Positions 48,493 to 64,000 of a stretch of DNA of 64,000 nt are shown here, piece after piece. Numbering within the stretch: position 1 is the stretch's first letter; every line of letters begins with the position of its first letter. Source of the stretch: an uncultured Candidatus Saccharibacteria bacterium (GTDB lineage Bacteria; Patescibacteriota; Minisyncoccia; Portnoybacterales; UBA2143); assembly GCA_964548405.1 (NCBI GenBank), contig CAZJPW010000002.1, forward strand, positions 17 through 64,016. The letters are read 5' to 3'. The notes below the pieces were generated by a model. That model was not told where the DNA came from. It saw nothing but the letters and a program-made list of their open reading frames with translations, and made no database searches. Position numbers and translations under genes: made by a program.

Positions 48493-50388
48493 CTATATCT
48501 CAATATTTATCCTAATCTTATTCTCTTGTTTTGGCATCTTATTAACCCAGAATGGCCAAAAACTTACCCTGGCTTTCTCGATCTCTGATTGGTTAGCTAA
48601 ATACCTCCTTACTTCCACTTCATCCTGACCAGCCAAATTTTCCTTTAAAGATTGTATATCTATTTTAAAAGCAACATTCTCTTCAATAGTTAAAGAAAAA
48701 GAAGCTTCGCCTTTTTCCCAGTCTATTACTGGAGTCTGCCAACTAATCTTTTGTGTTTCATTAATCGGAGTCTTATCATCAGAAATTTTTGAAATTAGAT
48801 TTAAATCAACTAAATTTTTCAGATCTTCTTCTTTGAAAAGCAAAGCCTTCATAGTTACCTTTATATCCATATTAAATTTATCCGCCTGATCACCTTCTTT
48901 AACACTGATTTCTATCTTAACTACTTCTTCTTTTAATCCATCTTCGACTATCCTTAAATCAGTAGGAATCTGATCTTCCAAGGCCTGTTTGACTTCCTGC
49001 TTCAACTCATCAATTAAAGCAGTTTCTGCCTTTTCTAAATCATCAGACAAAACAACCTTAGCTTTACCAACAAAGCCGCCACTCATTGAATCATTAGTCT
49101 TGCCGTAAAAACCGGCAAACTTAGGTGAACCCTTAAATCCGGGTATAGTGAAATTGTCTGGATCAATATTGTAATCTTCGCCCGGCTGATCAGCCACTAT
49201 CTCTATTTCTAAACTACTAGCAATAATCTTACCTTCAGATATTTTAGCTCCCGGCACAGTCACACTCTGAGGTATCCTAAATATCTTACCATTAGAAGAT
49301 TCAAAGCGCGTTCTGGCTAACAAAGTCTGTTTTTCAGAACTATATTCATTATAAATGGTAATCTTACCCCGGGCTCTTTGATTAATATCTTCTTCACCAG
49401 TAGTATTAAATTCTCTACTCTTTGTCTTAGTTACCTCAACTTCTTGAAGAGGAATTTCATTTAAGGATTCATCGATCTGAGAAACATCTTCAGAACCAAT
49501 CACCGATAGATCAAAGTTAACTACCTCAGTTTTGGGCGTAAGAGTAACTTCGGCATTAGGCAAAACCAAGTACCCCACCAAACCTGCCATAACTATGGCT
49601 ACAACGATAAAAATAGTGAATAGCTTAGACCATTTTAGACTACCCTTCTTTTCTGTTTCCGTAAAAACCCTTGTTTCTGGTATTTTTTCCACTTGGACTG
49701 GCCGAAGAGGCTGAACTGGAACTGGTTTTGGCTGCTGATCCGGAATACTCTTAACTGGAGATCGACGGAAAAATCCAGGTTTTTCCTCGCCTGGACGCGT
49801 AACTATGTCAGCCATTCTTTTTTGATTTTGAGTTGATGTTTTCTTAACTTCAGACACTATCCCAGAAACAGGCTTTTTCCTCCAAGAAGTCAACACAGCA
49901 AAAGGACTTTTAGTTTTGGCAGCCTTTTTTTCCACTAATTCATCAACTAAAAGATCTATCATATTTTCCTTGGATTGAACTGGCTCTATCTTTTCTTCAG
50001 AATTTTCATCTACTTCTACAGGATCCTTTACTGGTTCGTCTGGTTGAAGCTCCGGTGAAGCGGATTGGTTTTCTTCTATCTCTTCCTGTTCTTCAACTAT
50101 TTCATCTTGGACTGTATCCTGGACTAATTCCACTGGCAAATCTCTTTCTTTTCGAACGGCAAAGCCTATTCTCTCAGCCATTTCAGCGCCCAAGTCATCT
50201 GAAACAATAAGGGTAACTGCCTTATTCAAAATATCTGCTTCGCGCTTAAGCAGCTTTAGATTAATCGAACTTTGCCAAATCTGAGCACCGGAAGGCACCA
50301 CCAAATTAATTTCTTCATCTTCCGATTGAATAAGACGATCAACTACAGAAATAATTTCCTCATTTGGTTCTAAGTATATATTTTTCAT
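48493..50388 (-). CDS. Hypothetical bitopic membrane protein (631 aa) downstream of the ftsA-like gene
   Basis: Acidic N-terminal cytoplasmic region, a Pro-rich linker (KPVPVQPLRPVQ), one TM helix (LFTIFIVVAIVMAGLVGYLVL) and a roughly 350-aa extracytoplasmic domain. No recognised motif. Confidence 0.5.
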   Translation of the reverse strand: MKNIYLEPNEEIISVVDRLIQSEDEEINLVVPSGAQIWQSSINLKLLKREADILNKAVTLIVSDDLGAEMAERIGFAVRKERDLPVELVQDTVQDEIVEEQEEIEENQSASPELQPDEPVKDPVEVDENSEEKIEPVQSKENMIDLLVDELVEKKAAKTKSPFAVLTSWRKKPVSGIVSEVKKTSTQNQKRMADIVTRPGEEKPGFFRRSPVKSIPDQQPKPVPVQPLRPVQVEKIPETRVFTETEKKGSLKWSKLFTIFIVVAIVMAGLVGYLVLPNAEVTLTPKTEVVNFDLSVIGSEDVSQIDESLNEIPLQEVEVTKTKSREFNTTGEEDINQRARGKITIYNEYSSEKQTLLARTRFESSNGKIFRIPQSVTVPGAKISEGKIIASSLEIEIVADQPGEDYNIDPDNFTIPGFKGSPKFAGFYGKTNDSMSGGFVGKAKVVLSDDLEKAETALIDELKQEVKQALEDQIPTDLRIVEDGLKEEVVKIEISVKEGDQADKFNMDIKVTMKALLFKEEDLKNLVDLNLISKISDDKTPINETQKISWQTPVIDWEKGEASFSLTIEENVAFKIDIQSLKENLAGQDEVEVRRYLANQSEIEKARVSFWPFWVNKMPKQENKIRINIEI

Positions 50389-50392
50389 AAAA

Positions 50393-51673
50393 TTACCTCA
50401 TTATTTTCAATACCCGTCTTAAGACAGGCGGCAAAACTTTATCTTCATCAGTCATTATTTCCAAAGCTAGACTAGCTAGAGCCATAGGAGTAATGTATTC
50501 AGGCCCTTCTAGGCTATTAGTCTTGTCAATAATATTATTAATATCCTTAGCTTGGATAAAATCGATTTGGGGCGGTTGGCTAAAAGGAAACTTTTCCAGC
50601 CAACGGTTTTGAACCTTTTCTCTTTTTAAAATATTTTTAATTCCAGGAAGCAAACTACCACCTCCGCATAGCAATACTACCGGAGGAAAATACTCTGCCT
50701 GGTCAAACTCTTCCAAGACCAATTCTATTCCACTCAGCCAAAGCCTTAAATCATTTTTTAAAGCATCTCTAATCCTCCATTGAACACTCTGACTTAATGA
50801 ATTCTGACTATGTCTCATCTTTATCTTTTCAGCTTCAGACAAATCGAGATTAAGCATCTTGCCCAGCCGTTTAGTAAAAGTCTGTCCGGCTAAAGCAAAA
50901 CTTTTAATGCCTTCTACTCTGTTCTGACGAACTAAAGCAATATCAGTTGTACCTCCGCCCATATCTATAAAGATTGCACCAGCTGTAGGATTAAAACAGG
51001 ATGTCTTAGTTAAAGCATATGGTTCAGCCGCAATAGAAAGTAAATCCAAATCCAATTTAGCAGCAATATTTTCCACAGCTCGCAAATGAACTAAGGGCGC
51101 ATAAACATTAAAAATGCCTAAAAAAATCTCTTTGCCCTGGAATCCTAAAGGATTAGTCACCTGATAACCATCAATTCGGATATCGGTTAATAAGGCGTTA
51201 ATTGGTTTAATTTCAATTTCTGGACAACAGGTTTCGTGGCCTAATTGGCGCCGGGTCCGATCAAAAGCTTTCCATTGAACTCTCTGGATTACATTCTGCA
51301 GTTCAGCTGAATCAATTGGCTCTTCAGGATTATCCCTTGGACAGACAAAATTAGTAGTTACTCCTTTAATGAATTCCCCGGCAATGCCTATAATCGCTTT
51401 TTTGGGCTTAACCCGAGCCATCTGATTAGCCTGTTCAATTGCTTTCCGGCAAGTTAGAGTTACTCCATCAATGTCAGCTACAGCCCCAGCCAGCATACTA
51501 CCAGACAACTGCCTTTGACGCCCAAATCCAATAACAGCCCCCTGATCTTTAATCTCTCCTCGTTCAGATATTCCCCTTTCCAGCCTAAAAATCAAAGCTT
51601 TAACAAACTCTGTTCCTATATCAATAACTAACAAATATTTTTTGGGCTTTGTCTTTCTAGAAAACAACCGCAT
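50393..51673 (-). CDS. ftsA: FtsA-like actin-family ATPase (FtsA/PilM family)
   Basis: LLVIDIGTEFVKALIF phosphate-1, DMGGGTTDIAL phosphate-2 and a C-terminal amphipathic tail. Confidence 0.7.
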   Translation of the reverse strand: MRLFSRKTKPKKYLLVIDIGTEFVKALIFRLERGISERGEIKDQGAVIGFGRQRQLSGSMLAGAVADIDGVTLTCRKAIEQANQMARVKPKKAIIGIAGEFIKGVTTNFVCPRDNPEEPIDSAELQNVIQRVQWKAFDRTRRQLGHETCCPEIEIKPINALLTDIRIDGYQVTNPLGFQGKEIFLGIFNVYAPLVHLRAVENIAAKLDLDLLSIAAEPYALTKTSCFNPTAGAIFIDMGGGTTDIALVRQNRVEGIKSFALAGQTFTKRLGKMLNLDLSEAEKIKMRHSQNSLSQSVQWRIRDALKNDLRLWLSGIELVLEEFDQAEYFPPVVLLCGGGSLLPGIKNILKREKVQNRWLEKFPFSQPPQIDFIQAKDINNIIDKTNSLEGPEYITPMALASLALEIMTDEDKVLPPVLRRVLKIMR

Positions 51674-53549: not shown

Positions 53550-55256
53550 TTACTCTACTTCCTTGTTATAGCACTTCTGACAGTATACTATTTCTTTTCG
53601 CTCTGGGGAATAGGTTGTTTGGAATTTAACATTACATCCTTTGTTCATACACTGCCTTTGCCACAACCTCAAAGGATTTCTAAATCTAGACCTTTCTTTT
53701 CTTCTGCAATACATACAAGTTCTAGGCAAGGGTAAATTATGTTTTTTGTAAAAATCTAATTCTCTGGACACAATTTGAAAAACACCTGAACCGTCACAAT
53801 CACTCCCATTCTGACATCTAATTACTTGTTTTAAAATACTTTTATCTACATCATTAATATGATCTGGTAGTTTTTCTGATTTAATTGTTGCTTTGTATTC
53901 TGGCTTAGGCCGATCATACCAAGTATATCCTTTAGCTAAAGCCTGTTTTTTAGTCAAAGGAAAATATACCTGAGCTGGCGTATCATGATAACTAAAGCGG
54001 GACATTTCAAGAGGGAAAAAATCTCCATACTGATAAACTCTTTTCTTTTTATCAATGTATGGCATATCGTTCATTTGCTGCTTAATCTTCTTAATCATTT
54101 CTTTGTATTCTTGTTTGGAATATTGTTTATTAAAAATACAGTATTCTTTATGACGCAAACCAATACAGCCAAATATGTCATGGCAGTTATAGCATTCTAT
54201 GGAATAGGCAGTATCATAGCAATTATCTAAATTGCCTGAACAAACAAGATTACGACAACTAGTAGTAAAATCCGCTTCGTAAAGCAATTCTGATTTTGTT
54301 CCTCCAGCATTAACATCATAACTATCTTTAATATTCAACCCAGACATATGGATAAATTTACAATCTTCTGCTCCTTGATAAACACCAAAACATCTATAGC
54401 AGTTTTTACTTCCGTTAACATAGTCTCCAATAATACCAACTGATTTAATTATCTTAGCCCAAGGTTTGGGAAATTTTAAATTAAATCTCTCAAACTTCCT
54501 TATTAACTTCTGTACTGTCTCATAGCTTCCCAAATCATATTTCTTGATTTCCTTTAAATATTCTGCTTTGGAATATGCTTCGTTAAAGATGTGATACTTC
54601 TTGTTTCCCAAATTAACGCAGCCGAAACAGCTTTGGCAGTTACGGCAATCGTACAAAAAAGACGAATCCATACAATTATTACAAAAAGCGCTGAAAAACA
54701 AACGATAGGAATTATCACAATCAAAACACTCATAGATCCGTTCTCCTCCAATAATCATAGTTGAATCCATGGAATCTTTAGTCATGCCAGGACCATGAAG
54801 ATACAAACAGCTTTCTGAAGCAATTCCACCATGAGACATATAGCAGTTTTTGCTTTGAATTAAGTTAGTACAATACTCACAATCAACCGAATTAATCAAT
54901 CTTAAGTTATGCCAAGGAACTTGCTTCATTAACCGATTAAACTGTTCAAAGAATGTTTTCTTAAAATCATACTCCTTTCCATAATCCATTGGATCCCACT
55001 TATCTGACCACCAGATCTTTTGATCATAAACCTTGTATGATGTTTTAGGGTTATAGCCGCTGATCAATTCCTTGCCAGTAAAATCACATTTATCTTTGTA
55101 TAATCTATCAATACTCCTAACAGCCAATCTTCTAATTAAACGACACTCCGGACACCAGGTTGGTTCTGGTACATCTATCTTTTTATAAAATTCAAAATCT
55201 TCTGGTTCTATCACAAACTTAGATTTACAATTTTGGCAAGTTTCAGTTTTTTTCAT
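53550..55256 (-). CDS. Cysteine-rich bookend zinc-ribbon paralogue 1 (568 aa)
   Basis: N-terminal CQNCKSKFVIEPEDFEFYKKIDVPEPTWCPECR and a homologous C-terminal module. Internal CxxCxxCxxC and duplicated LFGC..KKYxIFNKxYSKxEY units. The member of the tandem family nearest alaS. Confidence 0.6.
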   Translation of the reverse strand: MKKTETCQNCKSKFVIEPEDFEFYKKIDVPEPTWCPECRLIRRLAVRSIDRLYKDKCDFTGKELISGYNPKTSYKVYDQKIWWSDKWDPMDYGKEYDFKKTFFEQFNRLMKQVPWHNLRLINSVDCEYCTNLIQSKNCYMSHGGIASESCLYLHGPGMTKDSMDSTMIIGGERIYECFDCDNSYRLFFSAFCNNCMDSSFLYDCRNCQSCFGCVNLGNKKYHIFNEAYSKAEYLKEIKKYDLGSYETVQKLIRKFERFNLKFPKPWAKIIKSVGIIGDYVNGSKNCYRCFGVYQGAEDCKFIHMSGLNIKDSYDVNAGGTKSELLYEADFTTSCRNLVCSGNLDNCYDTAYSIECYNCHDIFGCIGLRHKEYCIFNKQYSKQEYKEMIKKIKQQMNDMPYIDKKKRVYQYGDFFPLEMSRFSYHDTPAQVYFPLTKKQALAKGYTWYDRPKPEYKATIKSEKLPDHINDVDKSILKQVIRCQNGSDCDGSGVFQIVSRELDFYKKHNLPLPRTCMYCRRKERSRFRNPLRLWQRQCMNKGCNVKFQTTYSPERKEIVYCQKCYNKEVE

Positions 55257-56602
55257 TTGTTTTTAATAAAGAATTTTGAAATAATACTTCCAATTATTAA
55301 CCCAGCTAAAGTAGAAACCAAAGCATAACCAACAACCAATGGAGTAAATGAACCAGTTACTGAAACTACAATAAAAACGATTAGACCTAAGGCATATCCT
55401 AGAGTCAAAGCAAACCCAGAAATTCTTCTAAAAAGCCAAGTAGTAATTATTCCAACTCCTAAAACAATACCAATTGTTGCCCATAAATACGTTGAGACAA
55501 TGACACTTTTTAATAAATAACTGGCAATGGCAGCTAAAACAATAATCACGGCCATAGTAATCCTAAAATATTTAACGGTCTGCTCTTTACTAACCTTCTT
55601 ATTCCTTAAAACAAAATCCTGCAGAAAAACTGAGCTGCTTGTAAAAATATATGTATCGGTTGATGACATTACTGCCGAGAACATTAAAACTCCACCAATG
55701 CCTAAAAAGTAAACTGGTAATAGATGAATTAATCCTTTGATAAAAGCTATTTCAGGATCTGCCTCAGGCATATGTGTTTTAATGACTAAACCAATCAGAA
55801 TCATAATAAAAATCATCAAAGGATAAATTGTCATTGACATTAAGAATCCCCTCTTTAAAGTCTTCTTATTCTTTGTCGCATATATTCTCTGAAACATGGC
55901 TGGCTGGAAAAACGGAGTCAAAACCCCAAGAATGATAAACATAGGAATATTCCCTAATCCAGATGACCAAGGATCTAAATATTCCCTATCAACTTTCCAA
56001 ATACTAGTCAAACTAAACAACATTATTAACAACAAAACTAGAATAACAATATATTGAAAAAAATCTGTTTTTACAACTGCTTTAAAACCTCCTGCAATCA
56101 GATAAATAAAAACAACAGAAGTAATTAAAACAAGAGAAACATTAAAACTAAATCCCGTTATTTCAAACAAAGCTTTTGAACCAGCTGTTAATTGGACAAT
56201 TATTGAAAATGTTAATTTGAGCAAGGCTAATGTAGCAGCTAAATACCCCGCTGTCTTGCCATAATTTTTAAAAACATAGTCAGCCAAGGTATAGTATTGA
56301 TTTTTATCTGCTTCATCTTTCAAACGATTTTTAGCAAAAAGATAAAAAACCCAAAAACCAGCCACTGCTCCTAATAAATACCAAATAGCACCCATATCAT
56401 ACAAATATACAAAAGTAACCAAAACAAGCAAAAAACCACCATCCGCCTTACTAGCAGCAATAGTGGCAAAAGTAGACAAGGAACTAACTTTCCTATCACC
56501 CAAAAGAAAACCTTCAGCTGTTTGTTTACGTGAAGCCCAAAGGCCAATAACTATTGAAATAGCGAAGTAGGCTGAGATTAAAACTATTCCTAATGTTCCC
56601 AT
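55253..56602 (-). CDS. Polytopic (about 13-14 TM) transporter, sodium:solute-symporter-like
   Basis: Hydrophobicity pattern and loose SSF-like N-terminal region (GFLLGDRKVSSLSTFATIAASKADGG). Embedded between paralogues 1 and 2 with 4-nt overlaps. Confidence 0.5.
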   Translation of the reverse strand: MGTLGIVLISAYFAISIVIGLWASRKQTAEGFLLGDRKVSSLSTFATIAASKADGGFLLVLVTFVYLYDMGAIWYLLGAVAGFWVFYLFAKNRLKDEADKNQYYTLADYVFKNYGKTAGYLAATLALLKLTFSIIVQLTAGSKALFEITGFSFNVSLVLITSVVFIYLIAGGFKAVVKTDFFQYIVILVLLLIMLFSLTSIWKVDREYLDPWSSGLGNIPMFIILGVLTPFFQPAMFQRIYATKNKKTLKRGFLMSMTIYPLMIFIMILIGLVIKTHMPEADPEIAFIKGLIHLLPVYFLGIGGVLMFSAVMSSTDTYIFTSSSVFLQDFVLRNKKVSKEQTVKYFRITMAVIIVLAAIASYLLKSVIVSTYLWATIGIVLGVGIITTWLFRRISGFALTLGYALGLIVFIVVSVTGSFTPLVVGYALVSTLAGLIIGSIISKFFIKNK

Positions 56603-56606
56603 AAAT

Positions 56607-58340
56607 TTATTCTACTTCTTTATTATAACATTTTTCACAATAAACTACTTCTTTCCTATCTAGGGAATAGGTTGTTTGGAATTTGGTATTGCAACCTTTT
56701 TTCATACATTGACGTTCCCAAAGTTTAATCGTACTTCTTTGTTGAATCCTTTCCTGATGTCTACATTCTGGACACAGACGAGGCAAAGCTAAACCATATT
56801 TTTGATAAAACTTAAGCTCGTTAGGAATAATTTTAAAAACACCCGAACCAGCACAATCAGAATTCTGGCATTCAATTGTTTCTTTTAAAATACTTACATC
56901 TATATCTTTGATATAATCTGATAAATCTTTAGATTTAATAGTTGTCTCGTAATTTGACTTTTCTTCTCTATACCAATTATATCCTTGTTTTGAAGCCTGT
57001 TCCTTATTTAAAGGAAAATATCTTTGAACTATAGATTCGTTGTATCCAAAACGAGAAAGTTCAATCGGAAAATATTCTCCATACTTATATTCTCTTCCCT
57101 TTTTATCAAGATACGGCATTTGATCCATCTGCTTCTTAATCTTTCCCACTATTTCAAAATACTCCTCTTTTGAGTATTGCTTATTTAAAATACAATATTT
57201 CTTTTTTCTCAAAGAAACACAGCCAAACAAATCTGAAGAACCATGACAGCCTTCTGAATAAAATACATCTCTGCTTGTCCAAACAGCATTGTCAAAAAAC
57301 ATTCGATCGCATCTTTCAACAACACAAACTGATTCATAGGCTCGAGTCACAAAATACCCTGTATCATAGACATCATAAGAATCTTTAAGTCCCCAGCCAG
57401 TAATTAATACATATTTAGAATCTTCTGTCCCTTTATCTCCATTGAAGCAATATTGACAGTTTTTGGAATTAGCCATATCATCGCCAACCACATTAACTGC
57501 TTTTTCGATTCTGGCAAATTTGCGTGGAAATTTAATATGGAAATCCTTAAATCTTTTTTCAACATCCAAAATCGTCTTATGACTACCTAAATCATACTTT
57601 TCCATTTCCTTTTCATATTCTGTCTTGGAATATGCTTTGTTGAATATGTGATACTTTTTGTTTCTCAAATTAACACAACCAAAACAATCGTGGCAATTAC
57701 GACAATTATACAAAAAAGCTGAATTATGACATTCTAGGCAATCCCAACTAAAAAAGAGTTTATAGCATTTTGAACAACCAACACAAAAATAGCAAAGTTC
57801 ATCATTGACTGCCTTATACATATCCATACAATCCTTGTTTTCTCCAGACCAAGTTGTATAGGAACAATTTTCTGACATTCCGCCCAAGAATACTAAATAG
57901 CAGTCTTTGGTCTGAGTCATATCATGACAATAATCGCTATTCTCCGAATTAGTATTTAAAAGATTAACTACTGGCGTATCTTTCTGTAATTGATAAAACT
58001 GCTCAAAAAATGATTTGTTAGAATCATATTCTCTTCCATATTCCATAGGGTCCCAATTATCTGACCACCAGCATTTATTACAATAAACCTTAAATGGCTT
58101 ATCCGGAGAGTAAATCGTGACCATAGATTTACTACATAGATCACATTTTCTTTTGTATAGCTTTCTTTCATTCCAAGAAGCTAATCTTCGCTGCATGCGG
58201 CATTGAGGACAAAAGGTAGGCTCCGGCACATCTATCTTTTTATAGAATTTCTTATCTTCTGATTCAATATTAAATTCAATTTTACAGTTTTGACAGATTT
58301 TTGTTTTAAAATCCATTATTCTATCTCCTTTTGATAACAC
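56607..58340 (-). CDS. Cysteine-rich bookend zinc-ribbon paralogue 2 (577 aa)
   Basis: Same architecture and conserved termini as paralogue 1. The central region diverges. Confidence 0.6.
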   Translation of the reverse strand: MLSKGDRIMDFKTKICQNCKIEFNIESEDKKFYKKIDVPEPTFCPQCRMQRRLASWNERKLYKRKCDLCSKSMVTIYSPDKPFKVYCNKCWWSDNWDPMEYGREYDSNKSFFEQFYQLQKDTPVVNLLNTNSENSDYCHDMTQTKDCYLVFLGGMSENCSYTTWSGENKDCMDMYKAVNDELCYFCVGCSKCYKLFFSWDCLECHNSAFLYNCRNCHDCFGCVNLRNKKYHIFNKAYSKTEYEKEMEKYDLGSHKTILDVEKRFKDFHIKFPRKFARIEKAVNVVGDDMANSKNCQYCFNGDKGTEDSKYVLITGWGLKDSYDVYDTGYFVTRAYESVCVVERCDRMFFDNAVWTSRDVFYSEGCHGSSDLFGCVSLRKKKYCILNKQYSKEEYFEIVGKIKKQMDQMPYLDKKGREYKYGEYFPIELSRFGYNESIVQRYFPLNKEQASKQGYNWYREEKSNYETTIKSKDLSDYIKDIDVSILKETIECQNSDCAGSGVFKIIPNELKFYQKYGLALPRLCPECRHQERIQQRSTIKLWERQCMKKGCNTKFQTTYSLDRKEVVYCEKCYNKEVE

Positions 58341-60034
58341 TTCTCACAATATACAATTTCTTTTCTATCTGGGGAATAAGTTGTTTGGAATTTAGTATTA
58401 CAGCCTTTTTTCATACATTGTCTGTTGTATAATTTCATTGGATTTCTCAATTTAATTCTATCCTGATGCCTGCATTCATGACATAATCTTGGAATAGGAA
58501 TGCCTTGTTTTTTATAAAACTTATACTCTCCTGGAATTAATCTGAATACTTTAGTCCCCTGACAATCTTTATTTTCACATTCTACTACCTCTTTTAATAT
58601 TTTATCATCTACATCCTTAATATCATCTGGAATGTCTTGAGCTTTAATTGTCGCCTTATACTCTGCCTCCGACTTACCATACCAATTAAATCCTTGTTCC
58701 TTAGCTTTATCTTCAGAAAGAGGGAAATATTCATTAGCTATGGTTTCATTATATCCAAAAGGACTTAATTCAGCTGGGAAAAACTCTCCGTATTTATATA
58801 CCCTCCCTTTTTTATCAACATATGGCATCTCATCCATATGTTTTTTAATTTTAGGAACTAATTCTTCATATTCTTTTTTAGTATATTGCTTGTTTAAAAT
58901 ACAATATTTTTTATGACGCAATCCAACACAACCAAAAAGATGATGAGAATTATTTGAACCAATAGTATATTCCATATCATACAAATTAATCATATGATCT
59001 TTAACACTCTTAGGTATATTCAGCCAACAAAATTTAGTTTGATACCCTCCACTTTCTTCAAGTTCATAACAAAGTTCGCCACCAGCAATAGCTATGTCAT
59101 AACATTCTTTACTAGGCATAAAAAGAATCATTTGACAGTAAGAACAATCTTCTAAATCTCTATTAATGAACGAATTTTGAACATTTTTACAATTGTTTAA
59201 GTAGTCTCCAGATACATCAATGCTTTTTCGACTATGCATAAACTTATTTGGAAATTTCATTTGGAATTCTTTAGCTTTTTTTTCTAAAGCTAAAATACTT
59301 TTATATGAACCAAGATTAAATTCTTTTAATTTTTCTTCATATTCTTTCTTAGAATAGGCTTTATTAAATATATGGTATTTTTTATGCCTTAAATTAACAC
59401 AGCCAAAACAATTCTGGCAATTAACTAAATTCTTAGAAAACCAAACATTAGAACATTCGTGACAATCAGTTGAAAAAAATACTTGATAACATTTAGCGCA
59501 ATCAAATAGGTTATATGAAAGTTCCACATCATTTACTTTAACCAAATCGTAGCTATCTAAAGACCCCGTAGTATCAATCGCATAAGCCACATTTTCAGAC
59601 ATGCCCGTATTAAAAACTAAATAACAGTTTTTAATATGACCTGTATTATTAGTAAAAGGACTATTAACCGAATCTAATTCAAATTTATGAGGAAATCCGA
59701 CTTGATGCAATAATTCTTCAATTTGTTTAAGAAGTGGCTTATTAAAATCATATTCCTTTCCATATTTCATAGCATCCATTTTATCAGACCACCAATATTT
59801 TCCATCATAAACTTTAAAAGGAAACTTAGGTGAAATACAGGCAAAAACCTCCTTATCAAGCCCTTCTACTTTTCTCTTGTAAAGAATCCGGCCACTTCTA
59901 AAAGCCAGTCGCCTTTGACTACGACAGCCAGGACACCAAGTTGGCTCCGGCGCATCTATCTTATGATAAAAATCACTATCCTCCGGAAAGATAGTGAATT
60001 CTTCATGACAGCTTTGACACTTCTTTTTTTTCAT
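58316..60034 (-). CDS. Cysteine-rich bookend zinc-ribbon paralogue 3 (572 aa)
   Basis: Same architecture. Overlaps paralogue 2 by 25 nt. Confidence 0.6.
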   Translation of the reverse strand: MKKKKCQSCHEEFTIFPEDSDFYHKIDAPEPTWCPGCRSQRRLAFRSGRILYKRKVEGLDKEVFACISPKFPFKVYDGKYWWSDKMDAMKYGKEYDFNKPLLKQIEELLHQVGFPHKFELDSVNSPFTNNTGHIKNCYLVFNTGMSENVAYAIDTTGSLDSYDLVKVNDVELSYNLFDCAKCYQVFFSTDCHECSNVWFSKNLVNCQNCFGCVNLRHKKYHIFNKAYSKKEYEEKLKEFNLGSYKSILALEKKAKEFQMKFPNKFMHSRKSIDVSGDYLNNCKNVQNSFINRDLEDCSYCQMILFMPSKECYDIAIAGGELCYELEESGGYQTKFCWLNIPKSVKDHMINLYDMEYTIGSNNSHHLFGCVGLRHKKYCILNKQYTKKEYEELVPKIKKHMDEMPYVDKKGRVYKYGEFFPAELSPFGYNETIANEYFPLSEDKAKEQGFNWYGKSEAEYKATIKAQDIPDDIKDVDDKILKEVVECENKDCQGTKVFRLIPGEYKFYKKQGIPIPRLCHECRHQDRIKLRNPMKLYNRQCMKKGCNTKFQTTYSPDRKEIVYCEKCYQKEIE

Positions 60035-60039
60035 AAATA

Positions 60040-61458
60040 TTAAACTAATGGTTCAGGATCTTTATCTTCTTCTTTAGATTTTTCAACTTTACCAGTTTTT
60101 TTAACCATTTCCTCTTCTTCTAATTTCTTTTTAACTTCTGCCAAAGGAAGAGCATATTTTTCTCTGCTTTGCTTAATAATTTCATCTTTAAACGATTTAT
60201 GATTAGGTGATAAAACTTTTAAGGTTTCAGCAGAAAAAGGATCAAAAGTTTCTCCATCAATAGTCATTTTAATGTAAAATTCTTGAATACCTAAATTAAT
60301 CATATCTTCAGCTCCAAAAACAGGTGTCATTTCTACAGCCATTCTAGCAGCATCATCTCCGCCAATTCTAAAAGTAACCATTGTTCCAATATTTCCTAAA
60401 ACTGTAGCTAAAACTCTTTCTAATAACTGAGCAATATATTGATGAGCGACAGTAATACATAACCCATATTTCCTTGATTCAGCAAATAGGTTTTCAAAAG
60501 TAGTCGTAACTAAGTTTTGAAACTCATCTACATAAAGATAGAAATCTTCCCTATCTTGTTCAGGCATTGAAGCTCTAGCCATACCAGCTTGATAAAGTTT
60601 AGTAATAAACATAGAGCCAAAGAAACTACTATTCTCTTCACCCAACTTTCCTTTAGAAAGAGAAATTAAAAGAATTTTCTTCTGATTCATAATTTCTTCT
60701 AAATCAATCTTATTTTCCTTCTGTCCAAAAATATTTCTTAACAAAGGATTAGATAGAAACTGACTTAACTTATTAACTAAAGGAATAATAGCTTCAGTAT
60801 CAAACTTTTCTGACCAATCAGCAAATTCAACTGCCCAGAATCTCTTAACCATATCATCTTCAATATAGTCAATTACTTTTTGACGATAATTCCTATCTGT
60901 TAAAATTTGAATCATACCTCTCATAGTTGCCTCTGGGTAATCAAGTAAAGCCAAAGTAGTAAATCTAAAAACATGTTCTAAGCGTGGCGTCCAGTTAGCT
61001 CCAAATTGTTTTTGTAAAACTTCTAATAAGCCTTGGGTAACCTGATGTTTTAAATCAGGGTCAATATTTGATAAAGGATTAAAAGAAATTGGAAAATCTG
61101 TATCCGAAGGATCTATAACAATAACATCATTAATTCTTTCTTTAGGAATAAATTTTAAAACATCTTCGATGAAATCTCCATGAGGATCAATTAAACAAAC
61201 TCCATGGCCATAAGCAATATCTTGACGGATAATTAATTCCATTAATTTACTTTTACCAACTCCACTTTTACCAACCATATACAAGTGCCTTCTGCGATCT
61301 GCTCTTTTCATACCAAAAATGAACTTCTTTTCTTCCAAAGCAGCTTCGTAATTAGTTCTTCCAAAAAAAGAACACTCTTCAGGATTAACTTTGCCGTAAA
61401 CAGGTAATTCTGGAGGAGGAGGCGCATATTTAATTTTACGAATTGTTCCTCTAGCCAT
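60040..61458 (-). CDS. P-loop NTPase of the HerA/FtsK/VirD4-coupling-protein type (DUF87-like)
   Basis: Walker A MVGKSGVGKS, Walker B LYVDEFQN and a downstream VAHQYIAQL motif typical of TraD/VirD4/HerA ATPases. K/E-rich C-terminal tail. Confidence 0.6.
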   Translation of the reverse strand: MARGTIRKIKYAPPPPELPVYGKVNPEECSFFGRTNYEAALEEKKFIFGMKRADRRRHLYMVGKSGVGKSKLMELIIRQDIAYGHGVCLIDPHGDFIEDVLKFIPKERINDVIVIDPSDTDFPISFNPLSNIDPDLKHQVTQGLLEVLQKQFGANWTPRLEHVFRFTTLALLDYPEATMRGMIQILTDRNYRQKVIDYIEDDMVKRFWAVEFADWSEKFDTEAIIPLVNKLSQFLSNPLLRNIFGQKENKIDLEEIMNQKKILLISLSKGKLGEENSSFFGSMFITKLYQAGMARASMPEQDREDFYLYVDEFQNLVTTTFENLFAESRKYGLCITVAHQYIAQLLERVLATVLGNIGTMVTFRIGGDDAARMAVEMTPVFGAEDMINLGIQEFYIKMTIDGETFDPFSAETLKVLSPNHKSFKDEIIKQSREKYALPLAEVKKKLEEEEMVKKTGKVEKSKEEDKDPEPLV

Positions 61459-61515: not shown

Positions 61516-63228
61516 TTACCCTATTTCTTTGTTATAGCACTTTTCGCAGTAAATAATTTCCTTTCTCTCTGGAGAATAGGTTGTTTGGAATTTAACATTA
61601 CAACCTTCTTTCATGCATTGACGCTCCCATAATTCAAGAGGATTTCTTTGCTTAATGCGCTCAGTATAACGACAATTAGGACATAATCTAGGTAAAGATA
61701 AGTCATTCTTTTTTAGAAAATCATATTCTTGAGGAATAATCCGATATACGCCCGAACCAATACAATGATCATTAGCGCATTTTATTACTTCCTTTAAAAT
61801 TGATTTATCAATACTATCTACATCATCCGGTAAATCTAAAGCATTAATAGTAGGGCGATACTCTGATTTTAAATTTTTATACCAATTATATCCCTTCTCT
61901 TCAATTTGTTTTTTTGTTAATGGAAAATATTCACCGGCTATAGTCTTGTTATAACTAAAAACAGAAAATTCTATTGGAAAGAATTCTCCATATTTATAAA
62001 TTCTTCCTTTTTTATCTTTATAAGGCATATCATTCATATGCTGTTTAATTTTTGGAATTAATTCCTCATATTCCTTCTTGGTATATTGTTTGTTTAAAAT
62101 ACAATGCTTTTTATGCTTTAATCCAATACAACCAAAAAGATTGGATGAACTAAAACAACTATCTGAATATTCTATATTGTAGACATTTTCTAAAATATTT
62201 ATCGAAAATTTAATTTTACTAAGATTAATCCCGGCCGTAACACTTTCGTAAATCAAATTCGCTTTGTCTCCTCCATCAAAAATATCATAGCTATCTTTTA
62301 ATTTCTTACCACCAGCCCAAATATACTTACAGTTTTCCGCGCCGCCCTCTAAAAGATAAAAGGAATAATGACAATTTTTGGAATCTTTAATATCATTACC
62401 AGAAACATTAATTGAATTGTATATACGTGCGTATCTCCGCGGAAAGCCTATCTTAAATTCTTCGAATTTACTTTTTACCTTTTCAAAATTAATATAACTA
62501 TTAAGCCCGTATTTCTCTAACTCTTTTTGATATTCTTTTTTAGAATAGGGCTTATTAAAAATATGATATTTTTTGTGTCTTAAGTTAACACAGCCAAAAC
62601 AATTCTGGCAATTCTTGCAGTCATACAAAAAAGCAGAATCAATGCAATAATCGGAATGCTGACTAAAATAGACATTATAATTTCTATCGCAAAAAATATT
62701 TTCGTAGCATTTTTCACTCTTAATCAGCCAAAAATTATCAAAACAATTTTTAGAATCCCCAACTACTGAATAAGCACAATTTTCAGAATTATTGCCGGTG
62801 CATAAATAACAGTCCTTACAATTGTACGCTCCGGCACAATAATCACAGTTAACCGAACTTTTATTGTAATTATGAGGCCTTGGTATAGCTAATCTTAATT
62901 CTTTAAATTGTTCAAAAAAAGATTTACTAAAATCATACTCCCTTCCATATTCCATAGGATCCCATTTATCCGACCACCAAATCTTTTGATCATAGACTTT
63001 ATAAGGGCTATCTGGATGATAAATAGAAATTATTTCCTTACCTGAGAAATCACATTTTCTTTTATAAAGTTCTAAAAGATTCCAATGAACCATCCGTCTT
63101 TGCATTCTACAATCAGGACAAAAAGTAGGTTCTGGCACATCTATTTTTTTATAAAACTCAAAATCTTCTGGTTCAATAACGAACTTTGATTTACAATTTT
63201 GACATTGTTTTGTTTTAGATTCATCCAT
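61516..63228 (-). CDS. Cysteine-rich bookend zinc-ribbon paralogue 4 (570 aa)
   Basis: Same architecture as paralogues 1-3. Confidence 0.6.
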   Translation of the reverse strand: MDESKTKQCQNCKSKFVIEPEDFEFYKKIDVPEPTFCPDCRMQRRMVHWNLLELYKRKCDFSGKEIISIYHPDSPYKVYDQKIWWSDKWDPMEYGREYDFSKSFFEQFKELRLAIPRPHNYNKSSVNCDYCAGAYNCKDCYLCTGNNSENCAYSVVGDSKNCFDNFWLIKSEKCYENIFCDRNYNVYFSQHSDYCIDSAFLYDCKNCQNCFGCVNLRHKKYHIFNKPYSKKEYQKELEKYGLNSYINFEKVKSKFEEFKIGFPRRYARIYNSINVSGNDIKDSKNCHYSFYLLEGGAENCKYIWAGGKKLKDSYDIFDGGDKANLIYESVTAGINLSKIKFSINILENVYNIEYSDSCFSSSNLFGCIGLKHKKHCILNKQYTKKEYEELIPKIKQHMNDMPYKDKKGRIYKYGEFFPIEFSVFSYNKTIAGEYFPLTKKQIEEKGYNWYKNLKSEYRPTINALDLPDDVDSIDKSILKEVIKCANDHCIGSGVYRIIPQEYDFLKKNDLSLPRLCPNCRYTERIKQRNPLELWERQCMKEGCNVKFQTTYSPERKEIIYCEKCYNKEIG

Positions 63229-63299
63229 ATATTGACTTGGATTTCTAATATGAAGTATAATATTGATAGTACTAAATTACAATGAGAGGGGGATATATC

Positions 63300-63458
63300 A
63301 TGGCACCGGAAAAAATACCTTACGAACTTCCAGCAATTGCTTTCACACTGGAAGACCTTCCATCTCAGACTGCTGCCTGGGGAGGTGGATCAATTTTTCT
63401 ACCTGAATCTGGCGGAGTCTCTCGACCCAAACTCAAAGACAAAACCATCGAAAAATAA
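63300..63458 (+). CDS. Candidate 52-aa micro-protein (MAPEKIPYELPAIAFTLEDLPSQTAAWGGGSIFLPESGGVSRPKLKDKTIEK), GC-rich, opposite strand
   Basis: Hand-translated. RBS GAGGGGG about 7 nt upstream of the ATG and an intrinsic terminator 20 nt downstream. Local GC about 47% against about 33%. Absent from the track because it is under 60 aa. Confidence 0.35.
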   Translation: MAPEKIPYELPAIAFTLEDLPSQTAAWGGGSIFLPESGGVSRPKLKDKTIEK

Positions 63459-63478
63459 TTCTCGATGAACTGTCGCTA

Positions 63479-63521
63479 CCGCTCTTGTGGATACTGAATT
63501 CGCACGAGCGGTATTTTTATT
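63479..63521 (+). terminator. Intrinsic terminator after the micro-ORF (CCGCTCTTGTG...CACGAGCGG hairpin plus TATTTTTATT)
   Basis: A stem of about 9 bp with one mismatch, read directly, followed by a T-tract. Confidence 0.5.
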
Positions 63522-63525
63522 CTCT

Positions 63526-64000
63526 TTATTCTACTTCTTTTTGATAACATTTTTCGCAATATATAATTTCTTTCCTATCTGGAGCATAGCTTGTTTGAAA
63601 TTTAACATCACAACCCTTTTTCATACATTGTCTTTCCCATAACTTTATTGGGTTTCTTTTACTTAATCTTTCTTTATATCGACAATCTGGACAAATTCTT
63701 GACAAAGGCAAATTCATTTTTTTGTAAAACCGATACTCTGACTCAATTATTCTAAAAACTCCAGAACTCTGACAAACACTACCTTCATTACCACACTCTA
63801 TAATCTCTTTCAAAATAGAACTATCTGTATCTTTGATATTATCTGGTAAATTCTCTACTTTAATAGTCGGCTTATGTTCTAATTTAGGACGATCAAGCCA
63901 AGTATATCCCTGTTCTAAAGCCTGCTCCTTTGTTAAAGGAAAGAATTCTTGATTAATAGTTTCGTTGTAGGCAAAAGGACTAAATTCAGCTGGATAAAAC
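63526..64000 (-). CDS. Cysteine-rich bookend zinc-ribbon paralogue 5 (3' part; gene runs off the window edge)
   Basis: The C-terminal module is highly similar to paralogues 1-4 (...CQKEVE). Hand translation shows the frame stays open from 63813 to 64000 (...YFPLTKEQALEQGYTWLDRPKLEHKPTIKVENLPDNIKDTDSSILKE...). The track start at 63813 is only an internal TTG. Confidence 0.6.
   Translation of the reverse strand, partial: FYPAEFSPFAYNETINQEFFPLTKEQALEQGYTWLDRPKLEHKPTIKVENLPDNIKDTDSSILKEIIECGNEGSVCQSSGVFRIIESEYRFYKKMNLPLSRICPDCRYKERLSKRNPIKLWERQCMKKGCDVKFQTSYAPDRKEIIYCEKCYQKEVE

Follow-up and report, generated by a model that had tools for sequence, protein, structure and literature searches.

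What is the work of a coupling-protein-like ATPase whose gene lies inside an array of cysteine-rich (Cys-rich) paralogues in a Patescibacteria genome, and are those paralogues its cargo or its partners? The gene is carried by a 64,000-nucleotide stretch of contig CAZJPW010000002.1 (GenBank assembly GCA_964548405.1), referred to here at its full length as the window. An earlier note on this DNA had proposed a cargo-and-motor arrangement, in which the ATPase would recognize the basic C-termini of the paralogues. Comparison with related loci shows that the association between the ATPase and the Cys-rich family is a specific, widespread, and dedicated genomic partnership. Because the ATPase sits away from type IV secretion system (T4SS) genes, in a fixed gene set that includes a membrane anchor and a family of zinc-finger proteins, it appears to belong to an undescribed membrane-associated machine. 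That the motor, the anchor, and the dedicated Cys-rich partnership make up a unit independent of the T4SS is a proposal to which we give about even chances of being right. Lineage statements below rest on records named as members of the Parcubacteria group; labels on third-party assemblies, such as "uncultured Candidatus Saccharibacteria", are unreliable.

The neighbourhood map covers 80 species-representative loci, 39 of which have at least 5 kb on both sides. Between one and six Cys-rich genes stand beside the ATPase gene in 37 of these 39 well-flanked loci. The partnership is found again in distant loci whose ATPase is fused to DUF8128, the candidate anchor described below; all four such loci examined for it, each in a different neighbourhood, carry Cys-rich genes or modules. 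In locus L171, the start of the ATPase gene is overlapped by two full-length Cys-rich genes, L177 has one immediately downstream, and L176 and L178 have separated Cys-rich modules in convergent orientation to the ATPase gene. The ATPases of these four loci share the type 1 C-terminal ending of the window protein. The association that the earlier note had read from a single stretch of DNA is thus present in other genomes.

The genes that accompany this pair are also conserved. On one strand, the order is SecD, SecF, a helix-turn-helix (HTH) protein, DUF8128, either a small membrane protein or a second ATPase, the ATPase itself, and then from one to at least six Cys-rich genes. Partner genes are co-oriented in 80 of 80 loci, and among those that are well flanked the HTH protein is found in 30, DUF8128 in 33, and the small protein or second ATPase in 38. 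The surroundings are of housekeeping type (secDF, alaS, ftsA, and ribosomal genes). The closest complete relative, locus L010, whose ATPase is 91% identical, has the full gene set including DUF8128.

The HTH protein, about 337 residues long, combines sigma-70 region 4 with a HARE-HTH domain. It is the most persistent neighbour, and remains even next to fused ATPases of type 2 where Cys-rich genes are missing, as in loci L172 and L174, whose ATPases have long type 2 tails. The second, or type 2, ATPase is a paralogue of about 580 residues with 43% identity, and its C-terminus bears a zf_Tbcl_2 zinc finger. Type 2 ATPase paralogues have low-complexity tails of 150-360 residues, which often contain a zf_Tbcl_2 finger, and their endings repeatedly take the form G-x-x-[VI]-x-F-[ED], which suggests a second class of docking peptide. 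The small membrane protein, about 172 residues, is encoded between DUF8128 and the ATPase (for example at L002:9481-9999) and an R-N-x-L-x-H (Rx4H) motif is invariant in its C-terminal domain of about 110 residues. Sub-threshold matches to HEPN models (HEPN_Swt1 in four of 17 members, best E-value 0.0019, plus Hypoth_Ymh) suggest that it may be a membrane-tethered HEPN domain.

DUF8128 (Pfam PF26449, about 460 residues) is encoded upstream of the ATPase in the well-flanked loci that have it, and in every case on the ATPase strand. It starts with a two-helix hydrophobic hairpin followed by a basic stretch, an arrangement that implies a cytoplasmic location for the rest of the protein. An exhaustive search covering 1.84 billion representatives yielded 21,858 clusters at an E-value of 0.001 or lower, and among the best 150 of these (32-61% identical, mostly 40-54%) 69 are single-chain fusions of DUF8128 and ATPase. 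Phages have the fusion as well. The family phrog_5156 (824 positions) matches DUF8128 at positions 78-219 and the ATPase at 388-821, while gp156 of Bacillus phage G (825 residues) has DUF8128 (hhalign 98.3%, E-value 2e-14) and then the ATPase in one chain. The phage G protein shares this single-chain design with the cellular fusions; it differs in having only about 27% identity and in the lack of annotated Cys-rich genes in the 9-kb stretch examined. It adjoins a VirB4/TraG-type ATPase, gp155, and its annotation as "MsbA-like" looks wrong. Because DUF8128 and the ATPase are adjacent in relatives and fused in many lineages and in phages, the two probably constitute one functional unit. A full-text literature search for DUF8128 found no paper.

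Structure prediction supplies a lead to the fold of this partner. The four best PDB matches to an AlphaFold model of DUF8128 (predicted local distance difference test, pLDDT, 82) in Foldseek are chains of TrwK/VirB4, with E-values of 6e-5 to 7e-4 and probabilities of 0.99-1.00, at TM-scores of only 0.28-0.33. By sequence profile, DUF8128 has no similarity to TrwK (hhalign 0.4%). A VirB4-like fold for DUF8128 is accordingly best treated as a lead from modelling.

The ATPase gene, its motifs, and the Cys-rich genes of the window are as follows.

60040-61458, minus strand: type 1 ATPase, 472 residues, ATG start, from the list of open reading frames (ORFs); ends ...DPEPLV
61249-61272, minus strand: Walker A motif GKSGVGKS, residues 63-70, invariant in the orthologue alignment
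60520-60537, minus strand: Walker B motif LYVDEF, residues 308-313, with D311 and E312 invariant in the orthologue alignment
60043-60150, minus strand: variable K/E-rich linker, then conserved C-terminal peptide (EPEPLV-like), from orthologue endings
53550-55256, minus strand: Cys-rich paralogue 1, 568 residues, directly upstream of the alanine-tRNA ligase gene
56607-58340, minus strand: Cys-rich paralogue 2, probable true start ATG at 58316
58316-60034, minus strand: Cys-rich paralogue 3, 572 residues, start 5 nt past the ATPase stop
61516-63228, minus strand: Cys-rich paralogue 4, 570 residues, upstream of the ATPase with a 57-nt spacer between
63526-64000, minus strand: 3' part of a fifth Cys-rich paralogue, cut by the window end, its frame open to base 64000

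All the features that the earlier note had described in the ATPase are present in the 472-residue ORF: both Walker motifs, a VAHQYIAQL box (residues 337-345), the lack of a transmembrane segment, and a charged K/E tail. The last 36 residues include nine Lys or Arg and eleven Asp or Glu, and the absence of any hydrophobic segment (maximum 19-residue Kyte-Doolittle mean 1.28) marks a soluble P-loop protein. The same note had judged the gene to be translationally coupled on both sides, which proves half right: the 5-nt gap to paralogue 3 supports coupling downstream, and the 57-nt spacer speaks against it upstream. This spacer contains a promoter-like match and a hairpin. Operon boundaries are left unclaimed because, in a promoter and terminator scan of the window, predicted promoters were not above chance (63 found, 55.7 +/- 9 expected). 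Rfam and tRNA scans of the window gave no matches.

Gene models within the array could be corrected at two places. The ATG at 58316 of paralogue 2 overlaps the upstream stop codon (TAATG) and is preceded by AAGGAG, and the gene encodes 569 residues in another assembly. A supposed 95-residue ORF at 63526-63813 is merely the C-terminus of the fifth full-length paralogue. In a public assembly of the same contig (L007), a gene of 568 residues occupies the fifth position and a sixth paralogue lies beyond it, after which the contig ends. Window and public assemblies of this contig together give the source genome at least six Cys-rich copies in the array.

Several other features of the window deserve record. 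A gene of the sodium:solute symporter family (55253-56602, minus strand; Pfam SSF, E-value 1.4e-28) lies inside the paralogue array, overlaps the start of the next paralogue by 4 nt, and is missing from the same position in related loci. The 297-nt spacer between two paralogues at 63229-63525 is richer in G+C (40.7%) than the sequence on either side (about 31%), and contains on the opposite strand a 58-residue ORF (63282-63458) that is called as a gene in public assemblies. As a minus-strand RNA, it folds somewhat better than shuffled sequences (z -2.68); it has no Rfam match, and no copy of it was found in the other loci compared. A 631-residue protein (48493-50388, minus strand), with only a weak GlxA beta-barrel match, follows an FtsA-like gene (50393-51673, minus strand), and the pair is kept downstream of alaS in related loci L004 and L007. 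Of 60 window ORFs of at least 120 residues, 58 are on the minus strand, and GC skew runs from -0.16 to -0.34 throughout; together these fit a single replichore with extreme gene-strand bias.

To which family does the ATPase belong? The earlier note had placed it in the FtsK-HerA superfamily, which includes conjugative coupling proteins, and Pfam domain assignment agrees, with TrwB-type families among four that score above their curated cut-offs: TrwB_AAD_bind (PF10412, 43.4 bits against 20.5), DUF87 (34.1 against 23.2), T4SS-DNA_transf (PF02534, 30.3 against 20.1), and TraG-D_C (26.2 against 22). A profile built from 12 orthologues and compared by hhalign with TrwB of an R388-like IncW plasmid gives 89.8% probability and an E-value of 1.8e-6 over 251 columns. 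The aligned stretch, TrwB residues 119-392, corresponds to what lies between the two Walker motifs, and both the hhalign and the Pfam alignments span the part of TrwB that holds the all-alpha domain. In a PDB search TrwB is the only solved relative found by sequence; the match to HerA has an E-value of 0.24.

Other assignments fared less well. A VirB4-type C-terminal ATPase was rejected, as the same profile reaches only 12% probability against the VirB4 homologue TrwK, with the P-loop alone aligned, and VirB4-type matches in NCBIfam have E-values of 1e-4 or worse, far under their cut-offs. NCBIfam TraD models likewise fall far short (best TIGR03743, 54 bits against 366). The earlier note had held that assignment to a housekeeping family such as FtsK proper would refute its proposal; no match to FtsK_SpoIIIE (PF01580) or FtsK_gamma was found in Pfam at an E-value of 0.01 or better, and the protein has no transmembrane segment. 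A HerA-NurA or HerA defence system was set aside in view of a match confined to the DUF87 domain and the absence of NurA, Sir2, and DUF4297 from the gene lists of the loci. Because of the Pfam and TrwB matches, the sub-cut-off NCBIfam scores, and the lack of FtsK_SpoIIIE, the protein is classed by sequence in a coupling-protein-like (TrwB/VirD4) branch of the FtsK-HerA superfamily, outside every curated equivalog.

About 8000 homologues of the ATPase were scored, and lengths and identities are drawn from the matches listed. Among these, the proteins are 470-500 residues long and 71-93% identical, and carry the names of Portnoy-, Giovannoni-, Kuenen-, and Jorgensenbacteria and of other Patescibacteria; across Patescibacteria lineages, identity is 70-93%. 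Identity of the ATPase (79-91%) exceeds that of alanine-tRNA ligase (AlaRS, 61-74%) in the same loci, which makes it one of the most strongly constrained proteins that these genomes encode. Conservation extends beyond the ATPase core to an N-terminal motif, APPPPELPVYG, and to a C-terminus of the form P[LIMV][VIML], which 118 of 120 orthologues have after a variable charged linker. Close fused relatives share the type of C-terminal ending. From this pattern, the conserved C-terminal peptide is probably a docking motif.

The window protein and its type 2 paralogue very probably belong to a group of proteins already recorded as orphan VirD4-like type IV coupling proteins (T4CPs). In the main text of Quinonero-Coronel et al. 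(2025; PMC12102498), 5713 VirD4-like T4CP homologues are reported from 2918 of 3035 Patescibacteria genomes (96%), about two per genome, which matches type 1 plus type 2 here. Only 148 of the 5713 lie near virB4, and VirB4 itself occurs in 2417 genomes (about 80%). Those authors suggest that the T4CP homologues have perhaps been exapted for other functions, and they find TrsD-like proteins, which resemble a stand-alone VirB4 N-terminus, to be abundant in Patescibacteria. The main text of that paper does not mention DUF8128, the fusions, the HTH and HEPN-like neighbours, or the Cys-rich family.

The Cys-rich family is large, with about 8000 homologues found. Among the matches listed, every one named by its source is called "hypothetical", and one alone has a precomputed Pfam family (zf_Tbcl). 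At the N-terminus, the proteins carry a treble-clef zinc module. Two Cys-rich repeat modules, homologous to each other, come next, followed by a conserved domain and, at the C-terminus, by a zf_Tbcl finger paired with zf_Tbcl_2, in which the Cys pairs are invariant. The zf_Tbcl_2 finger is common to these C-termini and to the second ATPase paralogue. An AlphaFold2 model of paralogue 3 has a pLDDT of 82 and a predicted TM-score of 0.85, with the C-terminal zinc modules at a pLDDT of about 90. No signal peptide, membrane segment, or disordered tail was found in the paralogues. The earlier note had described their C-terminus as conserved and basic, which holds (the isoelectric point of the last 92 residues is 9.2, and the zinc modules are basic); in place of a loose charged tail, however, there is a folded double zinc-finger module.

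Searches for a known counterpart returned little. By sequence profile, the PDB held nothing significant (best a LIM domain, E-value 0.045), and in Foldseek comparisons of the model with the PDB all E-values were above 1, the weak matches being left-handed beta-helix enzymes that align with the repeat modules. Comparison with viral models (BFVD) gave only small zinc-ribbon proteins, Pfam scanned member by member gave only zf_Tbcl and zf_Tbcl_2, and NCBIfam, PADLOC, and PHROGs gave nothing useful.

Two further properties of the family bear on its function. In a neighbour-joining tree, the paralogues fall into orthologous groups common to related genomes, from which it follows that the duplications are old and that each copy has been maintained; the paralogues evolve about as slowly as AlaRS. 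At L176:9940-11141 and L178:10343-11574, the family is split into a double-repeat protein of about 300 residues and a zf_Tbcl plus zf_Tbcl_2 protein of about 100 residues, and these split genes show the family to be modular.

Copies also occur away from any array. One lone Cys-rich gene, L119:9986-11740, lies directly upstream of rpoC, after ORFs of 1060 and 138 residues. Further lone copies stand beside genes for a class II tRNA ligase, a glycosyltransferase, and a PilB-type ATPase, always co-oriented.

These observations lead us to propose that the ATPase is the soluble motor half of a membrane-anchored, coupling-protein-like machine specific to Patescibacteria and lying outside the classical T4SS. 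A hexamer of the ATPase would be seated on DUF8128 at the cytoplasmic face of the membrane. The Cys-rich proteins would be its partners or adaptors in the cytoplasm, docking by way of the conserved double zinc-finger modules at their ends, perhaps at the C-terminal PEPLV peptide of the ATPase or at its all-alpha domain, and each paralogue would present a different central surface, Cys-rich and beta-helix-like. An adaptor or subunit role for the paralogues is a tentative suggestion that may well prove wrong. We favour it over a role as cargo because the paralogues have a folded zinc module at either end, because one of these finger types recurs in the second motor paralogue, because the C-terminal module can stand alone, because the paralogues evolve slowly, and because no channel genes accompany the motor.

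Several points weigh against this proposal. Every link in it is genomic or comes from predicted structure, and none comes from direct physical interaction. The adaptor role, in particular, is an argument by exclusion, since the modelled Cys-rich fold has no informative match in the PDB or BFVD, and the likeness of DUF8128 to VirB4 comes from one predicted model, with the TM-scores given above and no sequence support. For the source genome, DUF8128 is out of sight, since the contig stops within the array of paralogues. The HTH protein could be simply a transcription factor. Finally, when 25 long metagenomic loci are taken with a Cys-rich gene at the centre, only nine of them contain an ATPase, and lone copies occur among unrelated housekeeping genes; members of the family are thus found both in clusters and scattered, and the family may also act independently.

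Comparison with known systems helps to define the proposed machine. It shares with the T4CPs VirD4, TrwB, and TraD a P-loop NTPase domain with Walker A and B motifs and matches to their Pfam families above cut-off. Unlike those proteins, the window ATPase has no N-terminal transmembrane domain, a hairpin being supplied instead by DUF8128, either as a separate protein or, in the fusions, within the same chain. It is encoded in the chromosomal core genome, with no relaxase or mating-pair genes nearby in the loci examined, and is far more conserved than plasmid T4CPs, from which its TraD score also separates it. The fused relatives recall VirB4 (TrwK) in having a membrane-associated domain N-terminal to the ATPase, but the ATPase is T4CP-like, as the TrwB and TrwK comparisons show, and DUF8128 has no sequence similarity to TrwK. 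A precedent is the TraJ/TraI pair of pIP501, a coupling protein without a membrane domain together with a membrane partner (PMC7431656). There, as here, a T4CP-type ATPase that is soluble is paired with a separately encoded membrane protein; here the partner is DUF8128, whose name shows no relation to TraI, and the pair lies outside a conjugative element.

What might such a machine move? The canonical substrate of the TrwB/FtsK ATPase family is DNA, and the Pfam model that matches is named for a DNA-binding domain. Nucleic acid is the leading candidate substrate, on account of the HTH protein, the HEPN-like membrane protein, and the many zinc fingers in the conserved company of the motor, which prove nothing by themselves. 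Taken as a full account, this would make the locus a machine for nucleic-acid translocation or processing, serving uptake of DNA or RNA for nucleotide salvage or chromosome handling at division, with the ATPase as pump and the HTH, HEPN-like, and zinc proteins binding or processing the substrate. The persistence of the sigma-70 region 4 and HARE-HTH protein, the Rx4H motif and weak HEPN matches of the small membrane protein, and the basic zinc modules of the paralogues are all consistent with it, as is the position of the locus, next to ftsA in the window and to the dcw cluster in L174. Conservation this extreme, in proteins found almost universally, would fit an essential role in salvage or segregation in organisms that, according to the main text of the orphan T4CP study, are unable to make nucleotides (PMC12102498). 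However, nucleases, relaxases, recombinases, and channel proteins are missing from the conserved set, the HEPN matches stay under threshold, and such zinc fingers are equally capable of binding proteins, as the weak LIM-like match illustrates. We consider this account a minor possibility, if a serious one.

The cargo-and-motor proposal of the earlier note would make the ATPase a genuine T4CP that recognizes the basic C-terminal module of the paralogues and feeds them, as effectors for the host of an episymbiont, to a T4SS encoded elsewhere. The ATPase is indeed T4CP-like, the ends of the window paralogues are more conserved than their middle (58-62% against 41% identity), and copies occur in a cluster at the ATPase as well as at scattered sites. 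In these respects the family resembles the effectors of Xanthomonas, which reportedly have a conserved C-terminal domain (XVIPCD) bound by VirD4: in both cases, a coupling-type ATPase accompanies a multicopy family with a conserved C-terminal module and with copies near the ATPase and elsewhere. The differences are considerable. Here homology between copies extends over the whole protein and no toxin/immunity pairs are seen, and the module is a zinc finger that is present at the N-terminus too and occurs also as a separate small protein.

Secretion of the paralogues meets further difficulties. T4SS substrates generally must be unfolded, yet these proteins have a folded zinc-binding module at both ends, with no signal peptide or disordered tail. 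They form old orthologous groups that evolve nearly as slowly as AlaRS, unlike effectors, and have neither immunity-like neighbours nor a diversity of toxin domains. A secretion signal must be attached to its cargo, and the zinc module is in some lineages separate, as a stand-alone protein of about 100 residues in L176 and L178, and is also fused to the second ATPase; this argues against its being a cargo signal. A scan of 26 window ORFs (of about 60, and including all of at least 500 residues) turned up no T4SS, pilus, or relaxase gene, and T4SS and relaxase genes are likewise missing from the gene lists of the related loci. On this evidence, a classical T4SS was rejected for the window, the scanned ORFs being housekeeping or metabolic; they include AlaRS, an FtsA-like protein, ribosomal proteins, RpoA, MurA, MreB, glycosyltransferases, a histidine kinase, an ABC transporter, ProRS, TGT, and a hydrogenase subunit.

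A T4SS could still be encoded at a distance. T4CP genes are often far from virB4, and about four in five Patescibacteria genomes have VirB4, by the counts quoted above from the main text of PMC12102498. The same counts, however, put T4CP homologues in about 500 more genomes than VirB4, and that text reports the T4CP homologue of Ca. Southlakia to be dispensable and its T4SS essential. Secretion of the paralogues as cargo is therefore unsupported, and partly contradicted by what the paralogues are; we consider it unlikely.

A third explanation is an anti-phage or abortive-infection system, with the ATPase, a HEPN effector, the HTH protein, and the paralogues as variable sensors, a part they could serve. 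PADLOC does match the ATPase to mad8 (E-value 4e-12) and, more weakly, to HerA defence models, the small protein is HEPN-like, and HARE-HTH is common in restriction contexts according to its Pfam description. MADS was nevertheless rejected, as no other mad genes are present, and PADLOC applied to the neighbours gave no match at an E-value of 0.001 or better. The locus is fixed in the core genome and occurs in most species examined, its ATPase is more conserved than a tRNA ligase, and its paralogues evolve slowly, none of which is typical of defence islands. A defence role seems to us very improbable. Least plausible of all, to the point of being almost negligible, is the idea that adjacency is inherited gene order alone and the ATPase and Cys-rich family are functionally unrelated: the region from secDF to the ribosomal operon is syntenic across the clade and Cys-rich genes are inserted at many unrelated sites, but the link reappears in four distant lineages with other neighbours, orientation, and gene architecture, and a zinc-finger domain is common to the ATPase paralogue and the Cys-rich family.

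The membrane-anchored, coupling-protein-like machine proposed here can be extended to a wider picture that we offer as speculation and think unlikely to hold in full. A split VirB4/VirD4-like ATPase, made of DUF8128 and motor and present in two paralogous versions, would form a nearly universal translocation machine independent of the T4SS. Lineages of Parcubacteria/Paceibacteria type would use zinc-finger/beta-helix proteins as its interchangeable substrate receptors or as exported clients, and the machine would move nucleic acid or protein across the membrane and be central to a host-dependent lifestyle.

With at least six copies in a small genome, the Cys-rich family is a major uncharacterized component of these cells; it has thousands of members and no Pfam model of its own, only its terminal zinc fingers being recognized. 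Orphan T4CP homologues, which in the main text of PMC12102498 are commoner than VirB4 and almost never found by T4SS genes, gain candidate partners: a membrane anchor that is fused to the motor elsewhere, an HTH protein, a HEPN-like protein, and the Cys-rich family. The role of these orphan ATPases thereby becomes testable by interaction and localization experiments.

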